A stretch of 64,000 bases of DNA, from NCBI GenBank assembly GCA_030295235.1, contig AP026123.1, positions 1,054,001-1,118,000 on the forward strand, read 5' to 3'. This stretch comes from Fistulifera solaris (taxonomy: Eukaryota). This document shows positions 5,992 through 19,250 of this stretch, in pieces. The translations under genes were made by a program, and so were the position numbers. Numbering within the stretch: the first letter of the stretch is position 1; every line of letters begins with the position of its first letter. Under the pieces are notes generated by a model that was not told the origin of the DNA, ran no database searches, and worked only from the letters and a program-made list of their open reading frames with translations.

Positions 5992-6361
5992 GATGTTTGT
6001 AACACAAGATGATGTGTTATGATTGTGGTGTAAACACAAAGTAAAGCTAACGAAGGTATACCCTGTTCATAGGCAAAGAATGACACACGGCGCTTCTTTT
6101 ATGCGCAATCTCAAAAATCGCGACAAAGTCAGTCACGAGCTTATACAGGTACTCCGTATTATATTGTATAAAATATACTTTCATACCTACTTCTACATTA
6201 TATATACGCGGTATTATACCAGTGTAAAGGTTTCGCGGTATTATACCTCCCTCTCGCAAAAAGCGCAGTGGAACATTTCGCCTTTTATGGAGCGCAATGA
6301 TAATCATGAATCATGATGCATTCTGCGATGATCCATTTTGTTGCAACAGGATTAACTGAAA

Positions 6362-7351
6362 ATGATATCCACATCAAAATTGAATGAAGGATCACTTCTT
6401 GCCCGCGTGGTCAAAAATTTAGTGACCAAGGAAGATCCGTTGCATTTGCACAAGTCTCTCGGAATGGCGTGTTTGACGTCGTTTCTTTGGCGTTTTTCCT
6501 ACATAACAGACCCTTCTGCCGATCTTGCTTTCGCTTATTTTCCACAATTCACTCTCGTCACCATTTTGCTGCACCTGTTTTTGAATTTAAGTAGTTTCGA
6601 GTTCCATTTACCCGAAAAACGAATCTCCAGTGGCTATCGTATTTGGCCAGAATATCGCCTTCATTCTTTGGTTTTTCTGTTTCGGTCTCTTCTTCTCATG
6701 ACAATCTACTGGCACGAGAACTTGTTTGATATAGAACCGAACTATTGGTTGAACGGACTAGTCGTCTTGGGCAGTATGGCAGCCGCAGACCTCGCCAGCG
6801 CATCGTGCAAGCACCAATCTTCCACCATTCGAGCTCTACAAGCGCCGAATATTGTCAAATACTACTTCTCTGTCATGCAGTTCTGTGCGACAGCAACCTG
6901 TTTGTACGGATTGAGACGATTCACGGTGCAATTCTATTTCGTCATGATCATCCAATGCAACGCCTTTCTCATGACACTCCGAAGAAAAAACTTGATGCCT
7001 CATCAAGTGGGGGTTGTTCTGTACGGCATCGGTCTCGTCATGGGCTTAGCGCTGGCTATTATCGAATATGAGCGGGCCGGGGGTCTGGATTGTGTACGCA
7101 GTGTGACCTTGGTGGCCTGCTCTGCTGCATTTTGGAGAATGGGTCCGTGGAGCGAACGGTTGAAGAACAAGTACTTGATTTGGGCGGCGGAATGCTTATT
7201 CTTGAACCTCATTATTCGACCTTCCCTTGAGAGCGACTACCTGTTGTCACGATCACAGCTAGGTCGGCTGGCAGACACATCGATGTTACTGGTCGTTCTG
7301 TACGGTATCTTCACCAGCCTCCCTAACAAGATGAAGAGGAAGGTCACATGA
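6362..7351 (+). CDS. Multi-pass membrane protein of unknown function
   Basis: 329 aa ATG-initiated ORF with several hydrophobic helices and His-containing motifs (HLHK, RIWPEYRLH). Confidence 0.7.
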   Translation: MISTSKLNEGSLLARVVKNLVTKEDPLHLHKSLGMACLTSFLWRFSYITDPSADLAFAYFPQFTLVTILLHLFLNLSSFEFHLPEKRISSGYRIWPEYRLHSLVFLFRSLLLMTIYWHENLFDIEPNYWLNGLVVLGSMAAADLASASCKHQSSTIRALQAPNIVKYYFSVMQFCATATCLYGLRRFTVQFYFVMIIQCNAFLMTLRRKNLMPHQVGVVLYGIGLVMGLALAIIEYERAGGLDCVRSVTLVACSAAFWRMGPWSERLKNKYLIWAAECLFLNLIIRPSLESDYLLSRSQLGRLADTSMLLVVLYGIFTSLPNKMKRKVT

Positions 7352-7590: not shown

Positions 7591-8505
7591 TTAATTTTTG
7601 CGAAAAATAACAGAGAGATTGTTGGCTGGCATCTCAACAGACTCAACCAGCTGTAGCCCATTTAGTTCAGCGAGTTTCGTAACTTCTTCCAGATCTCGTA
7701 CACCCCAAGAAGGATTTCGACTTTTCAACGATTGGTCAAACATACTGTGATAAAGACAAAAGTGAGAGATGAAGGCTGTCCTTTTCATTTGCAAGCGTCC
7801 AACCGAATTACGGAGTACTCACAGATTCGACTCCACACAGGAACCTCCGACTTTGTATGGGCCGTAGAGGAAAAGTACCCCATTTGTTTTTAATTTTGAG
7901 CCAGCGACTCGCATCAGACCTTCCGTTGCCGACCAGGGTGCAATGTGGATCATATTGATAGCCATCATAATATCAAGTGAGTCTGGTAACAATTGCTGCG
8001 TTTCTTTCTCGCAAATCCCGCCAGAATCTAATGTGAGCGGAGCCGCTGGAGAGACCAACGGTAAAAGATCTTGCTCAACTTTCAATCGAGCTTCTATAGA
8101 CTGTCGCGAGGGTTCATCTGGGTCTGTAGGGATCCATCGAAAGCCGACACCGGCTGCTTTCAACATTCGGGCAAAGTGAATTGTATGCACTCCTGATCCT
8201 GCCGCGATTTCCAGAATTTGCAAGGGCCTCTGGGAATCTGTGCTAGATTTGAATACCTTGGATTGCAAGATTTCCCATATTGGAGTTTTGTTGCGCTCTG
8301 CAGATGGTGATTCCAATATATTCTCTGATGAGAACATGTCATGCAAAAATGAAGGCGACACCGTAAGTTGCCGAGCCTTAAAAAACACAGTCGGTTGTGA
8401 CAAGAACCCTGCTCTTGCCCGTCCAACGGCTAGCGATAAGCAAGTAATTTTTAATACAAAGGATAATGAGAAAGTCTTCCCTCGAAAGTTATTAAACCAA
8501 AGCAT
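7591..8505 (-). CDS. DUF938 / METTL26-like SAM-dependent methyltransferase; intron 7745-7822
   Basis: PSAERNKTPI, LEIAAGSGVH, INMIHIAPW, LYGPY, then after splicing FDQSLKSRNPSWGVRD and EMPANNL. Confidence 0.85.
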
Positions 8506-8574
8506 TTCCCTTACGTTTACTTTTGTCGTCGAATAAAAAAACGGGGGAGAACAAAGCACAGAAACTTTTAATGA

Positions 8575-9546
8575 GGACCGTTCCTAACCGCGGTTTCGTA
8601 CCGTAGGGCTTCGTACATTTTTGACGTACGAAACTTTTTCTACGAAGCAACTTCCTAACGGAAATCGCCTTTTTCGTAAATTTCGTACGATTCACGAGAA
8701 TTCGGGTCTCATTGATCACAAGCATATCAACATGATAATTTTCATTGGAAAACAATCGCTATGAAATAAATAAAGCTTATTTAGCATTGTTCTACATAAT
8801 CCGGACCGCGATGATATCAAAGGATGTTCATTGCACAATGAAATTTGCTTGAATAAGCGACGGAGACGACGACGATGCGGCGACGACGCCCCCATTTGCA
8901 TTTTTAATTGACTATTAAACGTATCCTTTGATAAAACATTTCAACCTTACAAAATAAAATTGTATTGAAGTGGTTTGGTGTATTTTTGAAGGGATAAGGG
9001 GCGCAAAACATTGTTTTAACGAGTGAAAATTGATAGCACATCCAGAATACCGCAGCATTCACCGCCATTCTCGTGCAACCGTTTCATTTTTTCTGCATTT
9101 TCCTTTCCGCACTACTACGTTGCTTCTTTGTCAATGTTTGTTGATGAGCAGTTCCTTATTCTCTCGCTTCCTTTAACGAAAACATGGTGCCGTCGACACG
9201 TGTTTCTCCTCGACTGCTCGTTTTTCCCTAAAGAGGGCTCTACTGGTCCTCCCTCTCGTCACCAAAGGGCGACAACGACGATCCAATACATCTAGTTGCT
9301 ATAAGTTGTATTTAATTGAATCATTGTTTTGAAAACGAAGGTAAAATGCTTAATGAAGCAATGGATATTGTTGACGTATTAATGTTCGAGTTTATTTTTG
9401 TGGTACGAAGGAATCCCTTCGTACCATTTTTGCGAAGTGGTACGAAGAGATTCCTTCGTACTTTTTTAGGGGAACCCGGAAATCGAGAGAAAAAGTACGA
9501 AACTTGTGTTAGGGTTACGGTACGAAAGCCCGGTTAGGAACGGTCC
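8575..9546. mobile_element. Non-autonomous MITE, PIF/Harbinger (Tourist)-like
   Basis: 31 bp terminal inverted repeats GGACCGTTCCTAACCG.G.TTTCGTACCGTA (2 mismatches); TGA on both flanks (8572-8574, 9547-9549); subterminal GTACGAA repeats; no coding capacity. Confidence 0.8.
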
Positions 9547-10344: not shown

Positions 10345-13300
10345 ATGGAAGCAGGTGCATTTGTGTGGGCACGCGACAATGAGGGCGACGAAGCCTGGAT
10401 CTTGTGCGAAGTAGTCAAGAAAACAGACACCGAATTGCGATTGAAACAGAAAGACAAGCCAAGCAATGAGTTCTCTCGTGGAATTGAAACTCTTAATGAG
10501 GAGACAGGCGAACGAAAATTTGAGGGAGTCGAATTAGCCAACACTCCGTTGTCGCAAGAAGAGAAAGAGGAAGGGCGAGATAATGATTTGATTGCCTTGC
10601 CTCACTTGCATGAGCCTGCTATACTACACGCTCTGTCAGATCGCTTTTTTCGCGGTAAAATTTACACGTGGACGGGACCGGTTTTGATTGCCGTCAATCC
10701 ATTTCAACGTCTTCCTCTCTACACGGACGACATTCTCGAAGTCTACCGACGAGATGGTCTGTTGAAAGCGCAGGGCATGCAAAGTGGCGATGAGCTCGAG
10801 CCCCATGTCTTCGCCATTGCAGATCACTCCTATCGTCAGATGATGGGAGAAAAACGACGATCCCAGGCCATTCTTATTTCGGGCGAATCAGGAGCTGGGA
10901 AAACCGAGTCGACCAAGATTGTCATGCTGTACTTGACCACCCTGGGATCTGGTAGCGGAGAAGTCGTAAAAGAAAACGCGAGTGATGAAAGTGGAGAGCT
11001 TTCTGTCATGCAGAGGGTTTTACAGTCCAACCCTGTACTAGAAGCCTTTGGAAATGCTAGAACCCTTCGAAACGACAACTCATCGCGTTTCGGGAAGTTC
11101 ATTGAGCTTGGTTTCTCCCGAGCTGGTCATCTTCTTGGTGCTAAAGTTCAGACCTATCTTTTAGAAAAGGTCCGACTTGCTTTTCATGCTGCGGGTGAAC
11201 GAAACTATCATATCTTTTATCAGCTCTTGCGCGGCTGCTCTGAAGAAGACCATATGAAGTACGAGTTTCACGACGGTGTTACAGGAGGCTTAGATCTTCC
11301 CAACTATTTTCACTACACTGGACAAGGTGGTGCACCGCACTTGCGAGAATTCACGGATGAGTCTGGGTTTGAATATACACTCAAAGCCATGCGAAGGTTG
11401 GGATGGTCGCAAGAAACGATTGATGCCGTTTTGTCGATCATTGCTGGCCTTTTACACCTTGGTCAAATATCGTTTGAGTCCGTGGAGGTTGATGGAGTAG
11501 AGACAGCAAAAGTCGCGTCAGAGAAGACACTCGAATATGCAGCTCGTCTCCTCGGCGTGGATATTGATAAACTCCGCGCTGCTTTGACGGAACGCATCAT
11601 TCTGGCACGTGACCAAGAAATCAAGACTCTTCTGACTCCTGATAAAGCCATGGATGCCCGCGATGCATTGGCGAAAACCATTTACGGAGCACTCTTCCTA
11701 TGGGTAGTAGATCAGGTAAACCAGTCGATTTGCTGGGCCGACGACAACGAAGTGCGTTCTTCGTGCGGTGTCCTAGATATCTTTGGTTTCGAATGTTTCG
11801 CTGTGAACTCTTTCGAACAATTGTGTATCAATTACACAAACGAAGCTCTTCAACAGCAGTTCAACCAGTTTATTTTCAAACTAGAGCAAGCGGAATACGA
11901 AGCAGAAAACATCGAATGGGCTTTCATTGAATTCCCTGACAACCAAGATTGCCTCGACACCATTCAAGCCCCCAAAGTTGGTATCTTGTCCATGCTGGAC
12001 GATGAGTGCAAGCTACCAAAAGGAAGTGATCGCAACTGGGCGAAGCGCATGTATGAACAATATCTGCCGGAGAAAAATCAAGTAGTCTCGGCAAATACCA
12101 GATTCCACGCTACTAAGGTTCAGCAGGGTAAATCACTCTTTGCGTCCGACATTTTGCAGGTCTTGTCACATACACTGTGGAGACGAACTTCATGGAGAAG
12201 AATAAAGATGAAATTCCGATTACTGCTCAAACATTGCTGGAAACGGCGCCAAGTCAGCTCATCAAAGATACCTACGAAATCCAAAAGCGAGAGAATCTAG
12301 GTCGCGCCGATGCCGGCAGTAATGCCCGTGCAGCCAAACCCAAAACAGTTGGCCAGCAGTTCAAGGAGCAATTGACGGCCTTAATTGAAAGCGTGCAGAA
12401 AACGGACCCGCACTACATTCGTTGTATCAAACCGAACGACGCGGCTAAGCCTCTTTTGATGACTCGTAAGCGTACAACTGAACAACTTCGTTACGGAGGT
12501 GTCTTGGAAGCGGTCAGAGTTGCTCGAGCCGGCTACCCAGTCCGAATGGTCCATTCTGGTTTCTTCCAGCGCTATCGGATGTTGCTTCCGACGACACCGG
12601 ACGATGTTCTTCCTTGGAGCATGGATGGTCATGTGGCTCAAGATCTGTGTGTGAAATTAGTTCAGATTGTGTTGGAAGAAGGAAAGAAACACAGAGAGGC
12701 TACCAAAGATGGTCCGCTTGATCCCCATGAGCCTGGAATCACTCGATCGGAGAAGATCAGGCGTATGCAAAATCAGCCTATACCCATGGCATTTCCAATA
12801 ACTGATGTGCAACTAGGAAAGACCAAGGTTTTCATGCGCAAGCATCCTCACGATTGCATGGAGGCACATCGCGTTTTTCACCAGCATGCTAGTGCTACTG
12901 TGATGCAAAGTTGGGCTAGAGGCTTGGCGCAACAACGGAAGTACCTCATCGTTGGAGATGCTGCTCTTACCATTCAGCGTTGTTACCGTGGATACAAGGG
13001 CCGTGAAAGGTATGTGACATGGTGCTTTATTGTGTCAATTGGCATTTTATGTCCTTGTATTCTTACCCATGTCTATCTTCAGATGGTGGAACCTACGGAA
13101 AGCAGATGCTGGAATGCTACTCACCAAGGTATTCCGTATGCTTATTGCATGGCGAAAGTTCAATCGGGTCAGAAAAGGAACTGTTCGCTTGCAAGCTCAC
13201 ATCCGTGGTCGCACCGTTCGTCGTGAGCAAGCTAGTATCGAAGTTCAACGATACTATCGCCGTTTCATTGCTTTCAAGCACTACCATATGCTCAAGTCGG

Positions 13301-15642
13301 CTGTTCTTTCGCTGCAGTGCCGTCTACGTGGAAAGCTTGCTACGCGTGCTCTGAACGAACTCAAGAAGGAGCAGAAAGACGTTGGCAAGCTCAAGAATAT
13401 CAACGTGAAATTGAAGGAAGAGATGGCGAGTCTACGCGCGATGCTTGCTGCCCAGGCAAAAGAAGGAGCTGCCAACGAGGAACACAAGCAAGCTTTGGCA
13501 GAGAAAGAGAAGCAGATAGCAGAACTAGAAAAACGAATAGCTGTCCTAGAGAAAGAACTTGCAGAGGCAAAGGCCACAGTCGAGAAGCTGGAGAAGAATT
13601 TGGCACAATCGCAAAAGAGATTGCCCACGAACGAGACAGAGTTCTGACTTTGGAGAAGCGAAAACCGACGCACGAAGTATCGGGATCGCCACGTTCGCAT
13701 CGGAAAACACCGTCAAAAGACACAGAAGACTTTTTTCAGGCGTAGACCTTCTGCTGATATTCCGACCAACAGCAGCTCAGCAGCTAGCTTCATTAGTCCG
13801 GATATTCTAGCCGACCATCTCGCAAGGGTTGCTATTCTTGAGCAAGAACTGGAGGAGGAAAAGAAACTTCGTCGAGAGGCTGATGGCGAAATCATTAGAA
13901 TGAGAGCCGCTGCAAATGGGGTGAAACTTGATTCAGAGATGGTGAACGACTTACTTTCTCCGCAACTAGACAGCAAGTCGGAAGAAAGTTCCATGACGGG
14001 AACAGACACCCCTACAAAGCCAAGGTACGTAAATTACTCGTTTGCTGCTTGGTCAATACAATTGCTGATATCAACTGTGTGCGAAATTTGTTGTTTATCT
14101 TGCTAGGTACATTTTCTTGCTTGCTGCGTTGCTTTTGATGACATTTGTGACTGCTATTCTGCTGCTTCGTCGGCGCGCGTCTGCTAGAATTCTTCTTCAT
14201 GTTCTGAAGTCGATTGAGCGTGTCCAGGACACACGTGCGTCCCCCATGCTTAATATGTCTATCTTTGAACTTGAGTCTGCTGAAATGGCCATGTTTGCCA
14301 AATCTTTTCATGCATCGCCGTCCATCGAATGCTATTGAGCACAGAGTTCGGCCCCCTGTTTTTCTAGATTCGTCATCTTTTAGTTTATTAGTTTTCGAGT
14401 TTTACTGTCTTCAGCTGCAATAAGACTCTGACATGTGTTTTTAATCCCGCAGTCAAGAAGAACGTTCTGAGGATCTACAGAGAGCATTATCGAAATTGGG
14501 TATCAAGGATGAAGCGAAGGAAAGGGAACAGAAATCTTTGCTATTGTCTCCATTCAAGGTCGGAGCGGACTTCATTCCCATGATCAAACGTGGTCTTACA
14601 AGTATCGGCGAAGATAAAGAAGAAGATGTTGCCGTTGGCTGGAAAGTAAATGCAACGACTCGACGAGAACAAGAGGAGGCACTTCGAAATGAGGTACACA
14701 GATTTGAAACTAAGTTGAAGAAGTACACGCACATGTTGGAAGAGGGTTTTGGAAGTAGTGATGTGGCAACTAAATAGAGGCGAGGGAGAGGTCGCCGGAG
14801 CAGAGGCGTCGGAAGAGTTTGCATTGAAAAATTCCAACGTGACTCTGCAGCTTCACCGCCGCGGTGATATGTTTGTTCAATCTGTGTTGACGTTCGTCCT
14901 CAAAGGTGGCTATCTTAGTAAAGCTATCGGTCGAAATCGAAATGTTGACAAAACAGCATTGGAGCCTCTTTCCATTCATGACATTCTTGAAGTACAGGCT
15001 GGCTGCCAGGGTTATGATCACAACGATTTGCCTACGGCGGCCTCTTCATCAAAAACCAAGACCAAGAAGAAACCCGACAAAAAGACCGAAAACGTTCAAG
15101 GCCACCTATTTCTCACCATCAAGGCGACTCCAACTCCAGTAGCACACTCTCGATCGTATATTTTTCGCTTTAAATCGCGCTCGGCGAGAAATGACGTCCT
15201 ATACGGACTCCGAAGTGTGCTCTCGGATATGCAAATCAAAGAAGGCGTAAGTATATCTGGCCTTCAAACAGCAAGTGGCAATGATACAGACGATGTTGAC
15301 GAAGAGGAGATTATGGTTCCGCTTGAAGCGGTCCATCAGGCCATTAATCGGGAGCGCGAAAGCTACGACAAGATTTTGCTTCTGCTGCAGCAAGGCACGG
15401 ACGACTTGAAGCAGAAAGAAGATGAATTACAAACGTTGCACGGCAAGCTCGATCACGCCTTGCAGCAATCTAAGGAGAAGGATCGTATCCAAGCAAACGA
15501 TTCAAAGCTCATCATGCAACTCAGCAAGAAGCTCGAAACACTTCTGATGGACAACGAAGACCTTCGAGACAAAAATGATAGGCTCAACACTCGATTGGTT
15601 TCCGTAGAAGCTGAACTGATGAATCTTCCTGGTAGACGTTAA
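10345..15642 (+). CDS. Myosin heavy chain (motor, IQ motifs, coiled coil, PH-like domain, coiled coil); introns 13010-13082 and 14025-14452; homopolymer frameshifts near 12140, 13615, 13735, 14748
   Basis: P-loop GESGAGKTES, NPVLEAFGNART.RNDNSSRFGK, DIFGFE, PHYIRCIKPN, IQRCYRGY-type IQ motifs; frames join when single-base indels are corrected. Confidence 0.93.
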
Positions 15643-15678: not shown

Positions 15679-17226
15679 TTAGTTACGAAACCTAGTAGGA
15701 TCGAAAGCAAACGTGGATTTCCCGTCGACGTATGCATTTTTTCTCCTCGTTAGACCCGCTGCGAACCCAGAAATAGAATCACCTAAAGCATTCACTCCTT
15801 CCGCGTCTTCGTCTTCCTCGGGTAAGCAGCAAGCGCAGCCTTGCTTTACCGCGGCTTTGAGAGTCCAATGTTCAGCTGGAAGTACTGTATCGAACAATGT
15901 TTTATTTTCGATTAATACCAACTTGTGACGAAAAACAGCATTCTCAATGTTGGCGTTCTTGAAATGAGGAGCCGACACTCTGGCGTTTACGCATGATACA
16001 GCAAGCTCCATTTGTGACACCGTCACATCCCCACGAGAGCGACTTCCGGTGATGTATTGAAGCAGTGACCGAAGGGCCCAATAGGACGAAGTACGTGGAC
16101 CAGAGGTAGAAATTGGTTGGGCGTTGAGGAAGTCTAATTTGCAGCAATATGGAAGGAAAGTCTTGTCTTCTTTTTTCTGGACCAAATAAGAATCGACGGC
16201 TGTCAACCAAGTCTCGACAACATCAGCTTGTGATACAGGTAGCCTGGCTAAAGCTTCCCCGAAGGCAGGTTCCATGACATTTGTTGAGGATGAAATCGAC
16301 AATAAAGGCGTGGTAGAAACCGTAGGATCTGCAAAATTTAATGCCTCTTGAGTATCAGTCGGGACGACGGAAGGATTCTTGGCTGACTTGCGAAGTGCAA
16401 CGGCGTTTGCTACAGTTTTCAAGCAACCTGTGTAGCAAAATACGTGCCTATCATCGGGGAAAACCCTTTGAAGCAATGGCAGTAGCGACGAAACAATACT
16501 CTGTCCAGGAAGCGTAATGAGCAAGGTCGATGTCTTACACCGAAGGGCTTCGACACGACATAGCGCATATAAAAGACGCTCCAGACGTTGTCGGGTGTAA
16601 ACGCGTTGCTGGATTAATACAGCGAGACACACCATCCAATATGGTTGTTGAATCACATGTATATCATCTTTATACACGCTTTCCACCAGGTCAACGATTA
16701 AATGTGAACCCTCATGCGCACTCGCGTCGCTGACAAAACAGAAAGTGGTCGTAGATATTTTGATCTCCATTTGATCTGCAACTTGTGTTGCGACCGCTGA
16801 CAGAGGCAAGCGATGCACCGTGTTTCCTTGCAAGAACCAAACAAAATGCTCTTTTGAAAATTCTTTTTGAGCCCATTCTGATGAACTCTCCTCGGATCCT
16901 ATACGGATCACTTGAATGTCCTGATAGCCGCCCGAAACCAGCTCTGAGCAAAATTTGTCGATTTGTTCGGAATCATCCCAGGACTTCGTAATTAATCCAA
17001 GTTTGTCCGCTACATATTGGAAACGAAAGACCGCTCGAGCAAGCGCTTGCTTCCATCGGTACTGGTACTCAGCAGCTCGTTTCGCTTGTAGCTGCTTCGG
17101 TGAAAGTAGGAAACGACGGCCTACCTCATCGCTCTGTAAAGCAACGAGGGTAAGGGCCAGAAGGGTCGCTGCGCCTGCTGAACCCAAAAGAATCGGAGAT
17201 ATGGGACTACCACTTGACAGAACCAT
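15679..17226 (-). CDS. Hypothetical protein with N-terminal membrane anchor
   Basis: 515 aa ORF with hydrophobic LLGSAGAATLLALTLVAL; convergent with the myosin; no family recognised. Confidence 0.65.
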   Translation of the reverse strand: MVLSSGSPISPILLGSAGAATLLALTLVALQSDEVGRRFLLSPKQLQAKRAAEYQYRWKQALARAVFRFQYVADKLGLITKSWDDSEQIDKFCSELVSGGYQDIQVIRIGSEESSSEWAQKEFSKEHFVWFLQGNTVHRLPLSAVATQVADQMEIKISTTTFCFVSDASAHEGSHLIVDLVESVYKDDIHVIQQPYWMVCLAVLIQQRVYTRQRLERLLYALCRVEALRCKTSTLLITLPGQSIVSSLLPLLQRVFPDDRHVFCYTGCLKTVANAVALRKSAKNPSVVPTDTQEALNFADPTVSTTPLLSISSSTNVMEPAFGEALARLPVSQADVVETWLTAVDSYLVQKKEDKTFLPYCCKLDFLNAQPISTSGPRTSSYWALRSLLQYITGSRSRGDVTVSQMELAVSCVNARVSAPHFKNANIENAVFRHKLVLIENKTLFDTVLPAEHWTLKAAVKQGCACCLPEEDEDAEGVNALGDSISGFAAGLTRRKNAYVDGKSTFAFDPTRFRN

Positions 17227-17815
17227 CAAATTCCGAAGCAGGCAAGTCGATCAACACGGAATGAATCAGGAAACAGAATAGATACGTCGTCTTAGCTCAA
17301 ACTTATAATACGTAGTCAAAGTTTCATGGCAGCAAATTATTTTATTTCGTGTTGTTGCGCTTCTGCGTTTTTGTTGCGTTCGCGAAGGATGGGGCGATGG
17401 AGGATGGAGAGTAATCATCGTCTGTCGTCTGTCCATTCTGAGGAAAATCACTATGGATTATAATGTAGTATCGAGGCCTAAAGGTAAACGAGAATGATGG
17501 AAAAGTACGAAATTCAGAAATGAGAGAAGACAAATGCCTAAGTAATATTCGGCACTATCTGAAAAATGTACGATCTCTGTCTAAGTATTTATAATTCAAT
17601 AAATTGATACTCATATCAACAGTACAATTCATATCTGCTTCATGTTTTCTTCCAAGGACGAGCGATTTCATAGCGATCGGAAAACGAGGTCACAAAATGC
17701 ACCTCAAATGGCAAAGTTGCGATGGACCTTCTCAATTGCTATACTCCCTTCCATTCAGAACAAAAAATCATCAAAATTCAAAAGGAAACGAGCACGAGGG
17801 TGAGACGGATGGAGG

Positions 17816-19250
17816 ATGGAAAACATAAGTAAGATTCTGATGCATCGTGTGCTACTGCCGGACATCAGCAATTATCTCAGACGAGATCAACACAGAGAGG
17901 AAACGCCGGAAGATGTAGGCTCTGAGATACCTGGTTCCTGTAGCAGCAAGCTTCCCACAGATACGGAACATCAGTCCATAGTCACCTCAGATGTGCATGA
18001 AACGGAGGCCGTGAGTATGCAATTGGAAGAGACATCACATTCAGGGAAACAAATCATGCTCTCCCCAAAGAAAAAATCGCGATAAGCAAACTCCTTTGAC
18101 AGAAAGCGATAACTGGCTCTCTTTTGATGAACCAGATACACTTGGATTGGATATGGACGCGGATTTATGGTCAAAAGATACGAGTCATCAATGGCGGTCG
18201 ACTCCAAGGCCGTCAGGAAGTTCGATGCTTTTTGAAAGCGACATCTTTCATATTGAGGATCAAGAAATGATTGCTTTCCCCGAGACGCCGCTGGGTAGTG
18301 TTCACGATGACGACAACGAAAGTGCTACTGTTTCATCGGATGATGATTCACGAATTCCAAAGTCTGTTCGCGAACGACTGAACACCTTTACACCTTTTAA
18401 ATTTTTATCCTCTCGATCAGGTAAAGCACCGATCGATCACGAACTACCTCTGTCCCGAAAAACATCTTTCTTCACCAAATCGACATCTGAAGACGGGTTA
18501 GAACTTTTGGGGGACTGGAAACAATCCACGGCAAGTCATCTCGCCTTTGACATTGATTCCTTTAAGGCAGATGATTTTATTCTCGAGGAAACTGAGGCAC
18601 CGTCTCTATGGAATATTCCTGGTGACGAAACATCCCCTATTTTCGGCAGCCGACTATCACTCCCCCTTGTCAATCACAGATTTTTCGAACGAGAACAAAG
18701 AGACGATAGTGATGTCCAAGGAAGCTTCTTATACGATGACTGCAATCAAAGAATACCGCGTCCTCCCCTAAGTAGCGAAGACACAAGCTATGGGGCCAGG
18801 CTTTGTTTCAGTTTCTTGGATTCATTTACGTGTCAGTCGGAATTAATGCACCCGTACCGAGAATTTGATAAAATTGAGAATCGCCAGCGCCGAAGACAAA
18901 GCTATTCTCGTCGAACAAGAAAGAAGATATCGAAGAAGAAGAGAAAGAAAAGGCTTCGAGAACAACGTGAAGGATCACATCGAGCAAGCAACTTCCAGTG
19001 TAATCTATCTACTATAGTCGAGCATTCTGACGAAGACAATGACAGCGACCACACCTCTCTCCAAGTTATGTCTGCGGTGGACAGTGATGATACGCAGTCA
19101 TTCAGTCTTCAAAGTTCTAGTACGGGCGATGGATCTGTAAACAGCTACGAAGATACACCGTACTCCGATGGATTATACAATCCACGGGACCTGTTCCTTG
19201 TTGCTAGCAAGATAGGAGATTGGGAACTACAAGAGATGCAAGAAATATAG
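17816..19250 (+). CDS. Hypothetical Ser/Asp-rich, probably disordered protein with a basic NLS-like stretch; probable frameshift in the A-run near 18075
   Basis: Adjacent ORFs 17816-18085 and 18096-19250; RRTRKKISKKKRKKR. Confidence 0.5.

Follow-up and report, generated by a model that had tools for sequence, protein, structure and literature searches.

A myosin gene on the + strand of Fistulifera solaris contig AP026123.1, at 10345-15642 of the 64,000-nt stretch that we analysed (the window, within which all positions are given), probably makes two motors through two in-phase acceptors: a soluble one with a PH/coiled-coil tail and a minor, tail-anchored one. We put the probability of this reading at about 0.75. 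The far acceptor is used in RNA and gives the main motor of 1,597 residues, with a predicted PH domain and a coiled coil in its tail; the near acceptor would open an exon hidden in the same intron and give a minor motor of 1,278 residues ending in a predicted single membrane-spanning helix, with its motor domain, IQ neck and coiled coil remaining cytosolic. For F. solaris we infer the use of the near acceptor, and with it membrane insertion, topology, target membrane and function. It is nearly certain that the hidden exon is real and conserved, very likely that it is translated as a membrane anchor of some kind, and likely that this anchor is a true span.

The window gene is a myosin heavy chain, in which a motor domain with P-loop and switch motifs is followed by an IQ neck; Pfam matched IQ with an E value of 3.2e-05, and about six IQ motifs were counted by eye. 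Its features, several of which are taken up below, are as follows.

10345..13009, + strand: first exon, with the myosin motor domain and the first of the IQ motifs (Pfam Myosin_head, E 7.9e-166; in the homeolog the frame is open across 887 aa)
13010..13082, + strand: intron 1, constitutive, 73 nt (GT..AG skip of 73 in runs X2-X4)
13083..14024, + strand: exon 2, more IQ motifs, coiled coil, conserved READGEII helix and acidic linker, ending in phase 2
14025..14030, + strand: common 5' splice site GTACGT, at the same position in every ortholog with DNA
14025..14106, + strand: putative proximal intron, 82 nt, with a CTGAT branch-like motif at 14065-14069 and a TAG acceptor
14107..14167, + strand: hidden exon, 20-residue helix, hydrophobic (GRAVY 2.69) and predicted to span a membrane
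14168..14206, + strand: hidden exon, RRR cluster and amphipathic helix, hydrophobic moment 0.72
14207..14338, + strand: hidden exon, tail that appears unconstrained in the homeolog comparison, and TGA (14336-14338)
14339..14452, + strand: post-stop spacer of 114 nt, possible 3' UTR, with a CTGAC branch-like motif at 14428-14432 and the distal CAG acceptor
14453..15642, + strand: third exon, used in the major soluble isoform; predicted PH domain at about 14694-15252, then a C-terminal coiled coil; junction present in RNA

Over the stretch compared in the supplementary alignment of PMC11420354, the window head is that of F. solaris fso78610 and the homeolog head that of fso161770, and the closest P. 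tricornutum entry seen there, judged by eye, is PtMyo47. A P-loop motif is common to 17 entries of that alignment, including PtMyo47, CaMyoI, Sro1732_g294170 and those of the centric Corethron, Chaetoceros and Attheya, which have the same head stretch; the araphid Asterionellopsis also has an ortholog. Within PMC11420354 the labels conflict, as the table gives the name CaMyo47 to the very different CaMyoH and the alignment contains PtMyo47; because of this disagreement the membership of the window myosin in class 47, based on the by-eye head match, is uncertain.

A second copy of the gene lies on contig C4 of the same genome (G000:C4:988500-998000, L003) and is 92% identical over this kilobase. 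The homeolog is collinear, with an exon identity of about 95% and the adjoining gene also kept, a layout consistent with an allodiploid genome. Both myosin copies are expressed in the RNA runs, and both occur among the listed pieces of run X2. Four one-base indels, near 12139, 13612, 13731 and 14751, break the frame of the window myosin, whereas the homeolog frame is intact. The one near 12139 is a one-base deletion relative to the homeolog and lies outside the stretch compared with reads. The reads correct the other three, and thus the assembly has homopolymer-type errors able to mimic pseudogenes.

The first-pass annotation had placed a donor with two in-phase acceptors here, and its coordinates, phases and both readings were borne out by the sequence. 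The donor CCAAG/GTACGT begins at 14025 in phase 2, and AGs in its phase end at 14106, for an intron of 82 nt, and at 14452, for one of 428 nt. From the near acceptor the reading is R-YIFLLAALLLMTFVTAILLL-RRR..., which comprises 77 residues and ends with the TGA at 14338, and from the far acceptor it is S-QEERSEDLQ..., leading into the long soluble tail. The 428-nt intron contains 18 AGs, and the other in-phase ones open no hydrophobic run above 1.3. A YTRAY motif was found within 60 nt of 5 of 11 near acceptors versus 8 of 10 far acceptors, a motif too loose to discriminate between them.

Four sequencing runs cover the region; X1 retains introns and behaves as DNA, and X2, X3 and X4 behave as RNA. 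A GT..AG skip of 428 nt was present in all three spliced runs, at depths of 30.5, 93.1 and 21.8, and the far acceptor is the main one of the window myosin. Of the two junctions named in the first-pass annotation, 14024-14453 was thus recovered in 3/3 spliced runs and 14024-14107 in none of the contigs of X2-X4, which come from one study and, being contigs, drop rare forms; an RNA-contig gap at 14036-14390 was not counted as absence. All 10 transcript-like loci found in a metagenome scan (below) also carry the soluble form, which indicates that the anchored form is minor or conditional.

Within the hidden exon the best 19-residue Kyte-Doolittle mean is 2.9, and together with the 20-residue helix of GRAVY 2.69 this agrees with the transmembrane segment suggested earlier; a Pfam search matched no family in the exon. 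The score was reached by none of 300 dinucleotide shuffles of the window intron. The metagenome scan yielded 24 loci, of which 12 were genomic and reached the intron, two ended before it and the remaining 10 were the spliced-transcript-like ones; the genome-contig and viral-contig collections scanned contained no relatives. As L006 and L007 equal L005 in this region and L024 equals L023, nine distinct genomic introns were compared. In all nine, an in-phase YAG lies no more than three codons from a hydrophobic run whose best 19-mer scores 2.39-3.16; basic residues come next, and a stop is reached 44-98 residues after the junction. Conservation of the intronic exon in orthologous diatom myosins, a check proposed with the original observation, was accordingly found in every distinct intron. 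The orthologous introns are 351-634 nt long (L021 was cut at 760), and the post-stop spacer measures 114-175 nt in the 10 loci having both ends.

A chance hydrophobic frame in a T-rich intron has to be considered here, since the 428-nt intron is 38% T and such a composition favours F, L, I and V codons. It is effectively refuted by the phase-specific occurrence of the pattern: with the window included, the rule held in 10/10 introns in the right phase, as compared with 1/20 in the wrong phases and 0/30 on the reverse strand. Dinucleotide shuffles satisfied it in only 0-7 of 300 per orthologous intron, and the substitutions between the homeologs show a synonymous bias. Because the scoring rule was chosen once the data had been inspected, more weight rests on the controls for phase and strand than on the shuffles. 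In the 11 aligned exons R22 is invariant and R23 nearly so after the helix, with little else in common. Exon DNA identity in three ortholog pairs is 0.61-0.64, no higher than that of introns, and it is therefore the protein pattern and not the bases that is kept. The carriers fall into the window group, a Nitzschia/Fragilariopsis group, a Seminavis group and a fourth group (L022, L023), which a tree of 43 neck/coiled-coil pieces, with 13 of 40 inner branches open, places neither as araphid nor as centric.

Comparison with the homeolog points in the same direction. Substitution rates are 3.8-5.6% in the exons, 11% in the first intron and 12.4% in the post-stop spacer, and the 82-nt proximal intron, with 13.4% substitutions and one indel, diverges like an intron. 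In the opening 100 nt of the hidden exon (14107-14206) the rate is 4%, versus 13% in the flanking intron (Fisher p 0.02). All four substitutions in this block are synonymous in the helix frame (three of three within 14107-14167), for which site counts give a p of about 0.007, 28.6% of possible changes being synonymous; in the other five frames the same four changes are mostly non-synonymous or stop-creating. The remaining 44 codons carry 13 non-synonymous and 5 synonymous changes, with no indel and with frame and stop kept. By this comparison only the first 33 or so codons of the hidden exon appear to be under constraint. The border of the constrained block is marked, in the window and in the homeolog alike, by an in-frame GT at 14209.

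That GT could serve as the donor of an internal cassette exon, 14107-14208, which would place the helix inside the full-length protein, and it does sit where constraint ends. We regard this as very unlikely, as the donor AA/GTCGAT is weak, the helix of L004 and L022 is followed by no in-frame GT, the positions of such a GT disagree in the other orthologs, and such an exon would put the PH domain and the motor on opposite sides of the membrane. No downstream donor is conserved among the orthologs, which argues that the exon ends the protein and is not a cassette. The exon thus has the features of an alternative last exon, namely an in-phase acceptor, an in-frame stop and no conserved downstream donor. 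Its description as terminal holds for the protein and is unproven for the RNA, no poly(A) site having been seen in the contigs, which do not show RNA ends; the only diatom poly(A) signal described in PMC6413133, as far as that source goes, is UAA.

The same data bear on whether the near acceptor yields protein at all. A conserved, unproductive 'poison' splice product, through which nonsense-mediated decay would tune the myosin level with little protein made, would account for the premature stop in every ortholog, the absence of the near-acceptor junction from the RNA sets examined and the existence of intron-retaining transcripts (P0044, possibly P0056, P0061 and P0068). Such a product has no need of a conserved hydrophobic and RRR pattern, yet the pattern is kept at intron-level DNA identity, and the synonymous-only change between homeologs in the constrained block places the constraint on amino acids and not on bases. 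We therefore consider this explanation quite improbable.

Protein relatives were examined for the junctions that they contain. The 31 long relatives divide into 17 with the soluble junction and 14 that extend into the intron, one of which (P0038) continues as far as the helix; a direct join to the helix occurs in none. The spliced full-length proteins are thus all of the soluble form (17/17). A HMMER search gave 75 hits, all of which were screened for junction type. In three of these (P0082, P0089 and P0090) the upstream exon runs straight into R-Y-helix-RRR-stop, and five (P0074, P0081, P0087, P0098 and P0122) reach the helix by reading through the proximal intron. The three direct-junction proteins are encoded on contigs of 4,029, 17,597 and 16,086 nt, and P0090 begins just after the position of intron 1. 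At least two of them are probably genomic DNA that has lost the proximal intron, and a starred branch (100/98) separating P0089 from P0082 and P0090 suggests that the intron was lost more than once. Either origin, spliced mRNA or precise intron loss, would mean that the direct junction exists in nature. A word search using an 11-exon profile, a weak search, returned only the known read-through P0038. P0015, P0005 and P0137 were not counted, as their hydrophobic runs lack a basic cluster or they are unrelated.

A 1,263-aa myosin encoded by MMETSP Transcript_15366 of Nitzschia RCC80 continues across the proximal intron and ends in the helix and RRR. The same transcript also encodes the downstream 371-aa piece, so the whole intron is retained, and it could be unspliced pre-mRNA. 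P0056, P0061 and P0068, a Fragilariopsis-like cluster, are 1,208-aa products from a start codon that end inside the hidden-exon intron; their contigs (5,728, 4,216 and 4,267 nt) look like mRNAs retaining only that intron, and the two short ones may end near the stop of the hidden exon. The proximal intron is stop-free and in frame at L008:4930-5127 and in P0038, P0044, P0074, P0081, P0087, P0098 and P0122. Plain intron retention would also yield an anchored myosin, although the frequency of stop-free introns may be no more than chance.

The claim that one motor makes both a membrane and a soluble isoform is thus strongly supported by selection between the homeologs, the nine of nine introns, the three direct-junction proteins and the PH fold described next.

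A model of the soluble tail, based on the homeolog and using 19 sequences, reached a mean pLDDT of 62. For residues 48-233 of the tail model, PH domains filled the top of both fold searches: by Foldseek, PLC-beta3 ranked first (E 2.9e-4) and TgAPH next, and the best Z was 12.4 to the PLC-gamma1 PH domain (rmsd 3.2, 124 aligned). The fold thus ranks with the PH domains of phospholipase C, apicomplexan APH and the glideosome connector, and a long coiled coil follows it. Pfam matched no PH family in the soluble tail. A PH-like/coiled-coil tail had been read from the letters by the first-pass annotation, and the model agrees with it in predicting a PH fold; lipid binding by this predicted domain may follow.

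In the minor motor the 20-residue helix would insert as a tail anchor, the RRR cluster and amphipathic helix would form a stop-transfer or targeting flank, and the rest of the anchor tail would be free to drift. The hallmark of a tail-anchored protein is present, namely a single hydrophobic helix near the C-terminus and no signal peptide, the N-terminus being the motor. In the 20 anchor tails compared, the helix is 19-23 aa long with a GRAVY of 2.06-3.33 in every case, the 12 residues after it have a charge of at least +3 in 18, and whole tails range in charge from -4 to +6. The tail after the helix has 56 residues in the window and 22-77 across the set, with 30 or fewer in six of the 20. A typical tail anchor has about 30 aa or fewer after its helix, so the tails of the window and its relatives tend to be long for one, which speaks against the model. 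A further conflict is with the positive-inside rule, by which the basic cluster after the helix does not fit a cytosolic N-terminus.

The latter difficulty would disappear if the translated helix did not cross the bilayer. The helix, RRR and amphipathic helix would then form a monotopic or hairpin anchor at the surface of a lipid droplet or organelle, with both ends cytosolic: the invariant basic residues would satisfy the positive-inside rule, and an unconstrained tail with no conserved lumenal motif would be expected. Lipid droplet signals can themselves be of a hydrophobic-plus-basic kind. We hold this to be unlikely, as a run of 19-23 residues has the length of one span, there is no conserved central proline or glycine, and the structure model gives one continuous helix over exon residues 2-40 (weak evidence, being modelled without a membrane).

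If the tail-anchored reading is correct, the choice of splice site would decide whether the motor binds reversibly, through lipids or adaptors, or is permanently attached to an organelle, and the attached motor would drag or tether an organelle membrane along actin. An ER-type membrane (ER, nuclear envelope or chloroplast ER) is the likeliest target at about even odds, given the high hydrophobicity of the helix and the low charge of the tail as a whole. The analogy is with mammalian tail anchors, for which high hydrophobicity and low tail charge favour the ER and high charge favours peroxisomes, as described in PMC5450235; being a mammalian rule, it may not be that of diatoms. The local arginine cluster is also compatible with mitochondria, peroxisomes or a monotopic anchor.

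For the role of the motor, organelle positioning or tethering seems a better guess than gliding. The proposed connection with raphid gliding proved weak, since the head differs from that of the raphid-specific class 51 myosins CaMyo51A-D, and orthologs in centric and araphid diatoms indicate that the window gene is not a raphid gliding myosin. CaMyo51A-D are likewise diatom myosins with an IQ neck and a coiled coil, but they are confined to raphid species and their tails are short (276-417 aa) and without further domains, unlike the window tail with its predicted PH domain. CaMyo51B-D are described in PMC11420354 as moving during gliding. The closest known counterpart is the myosin labelled PtMyo47/CaMyoI/Sro1732_g294170/fso78610, and the annotated orthologs retrieved are soluble forms. 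In the main text of PMC11420354, 'transmembrane' and 'splic' have no occurrences.

Myosins, to our knowledge, reach membranes nearly always through adaptors or lipid-binding tails. The transmembrane myosins treated in two classification papers, in the portions relevant here, are fusions with chitin synthase: fungal class XVII and mollusc/annelid class 36, in which a motor is joined to transmembrane segments (PMC3942036, PMC5583752). Those are multi-pass enzyme fusions, whereas the window myosin would have one helix, no enzyme and an anchor that is optional by splicing; the tail pieces match no chitin synthase Pfam family and contain one hydrophobic run, then the stop. The best functional analogue may be Dictyostelium Kif9, a kinesin-13 with its own single C-terminal transmembrane anchor of about 23 residues, at the nuclear envelope (PMC11816917). 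It differs in being a microtubule motor of unrelated sequence, and PMC11816917, in its accessible part, describes no splice switch. Tail-anchored proteins of the SLMAP type resemble the minor motor in having a coiled coil and then a C-terminal anchor, with several isoforms located at the ER, mitochondria or perinuclear region (PMC11461071). SLMAP has no motor domain, unlike the window myosin. Spliced 3' exons are reportedly present in SLMAP and similar proteins.

PMC9724779 gives a list of the myosin clades of diatoms and suggests that a separate transmembrane linker exists. Literature searches on diatom or membrane-anchored myosins and splicing returned no report of an anchored isoform in the text that they covered. 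Within the same sources a single-pass myosin has no prior example in the family, and alternative last exons and tail-anchored motors are already known. We think it fairly probable that diatoms keep this splice switch across raphid lineages, possibly back to araphid/centric ancestors, which would give a single-pass, enzyme-free, tail-anchored myosin missed by the retrieved gene models. If true, the conserved isoform would add a new architecture to the myosins and be for actin what Dictyostelium Kif9 is for microtubules. It would further offer a direct candidate for the link between actin and an organelle, be it the ER, the nucleus, the plastid envelope or the silica deposition vesicle. The hidden exon would also be a case of conserved protein-changing alternative splicing concealed in annotated diatom introns.

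The near splice would create the junction AAG/GTACAT (window 14022-14112), which is itself donor-like. The exon starts with GT in 5 of 10 lineages, and the R-Y-I/M start of all three direct-junction proteins would leave a donor in place once the proximal intron was lost. As a general mechanism, recursive splicing via the re-formed AG/GTACAT was set aside, since a GT exon start is found in only those five lineages. The neighbours of the myosin gene are open frames: on one side, one for a putative multi-pass membrane protein at 6356-7351 (+ strand) and one that looks methyltransferase-like by eye at 7819-8583 (- strand). On the other are a frame of 523 codons at 15679-17250 (- strand), which converges on the myosin gene, and an acidic frame of low complexity at 18015-19250 (+ strand).
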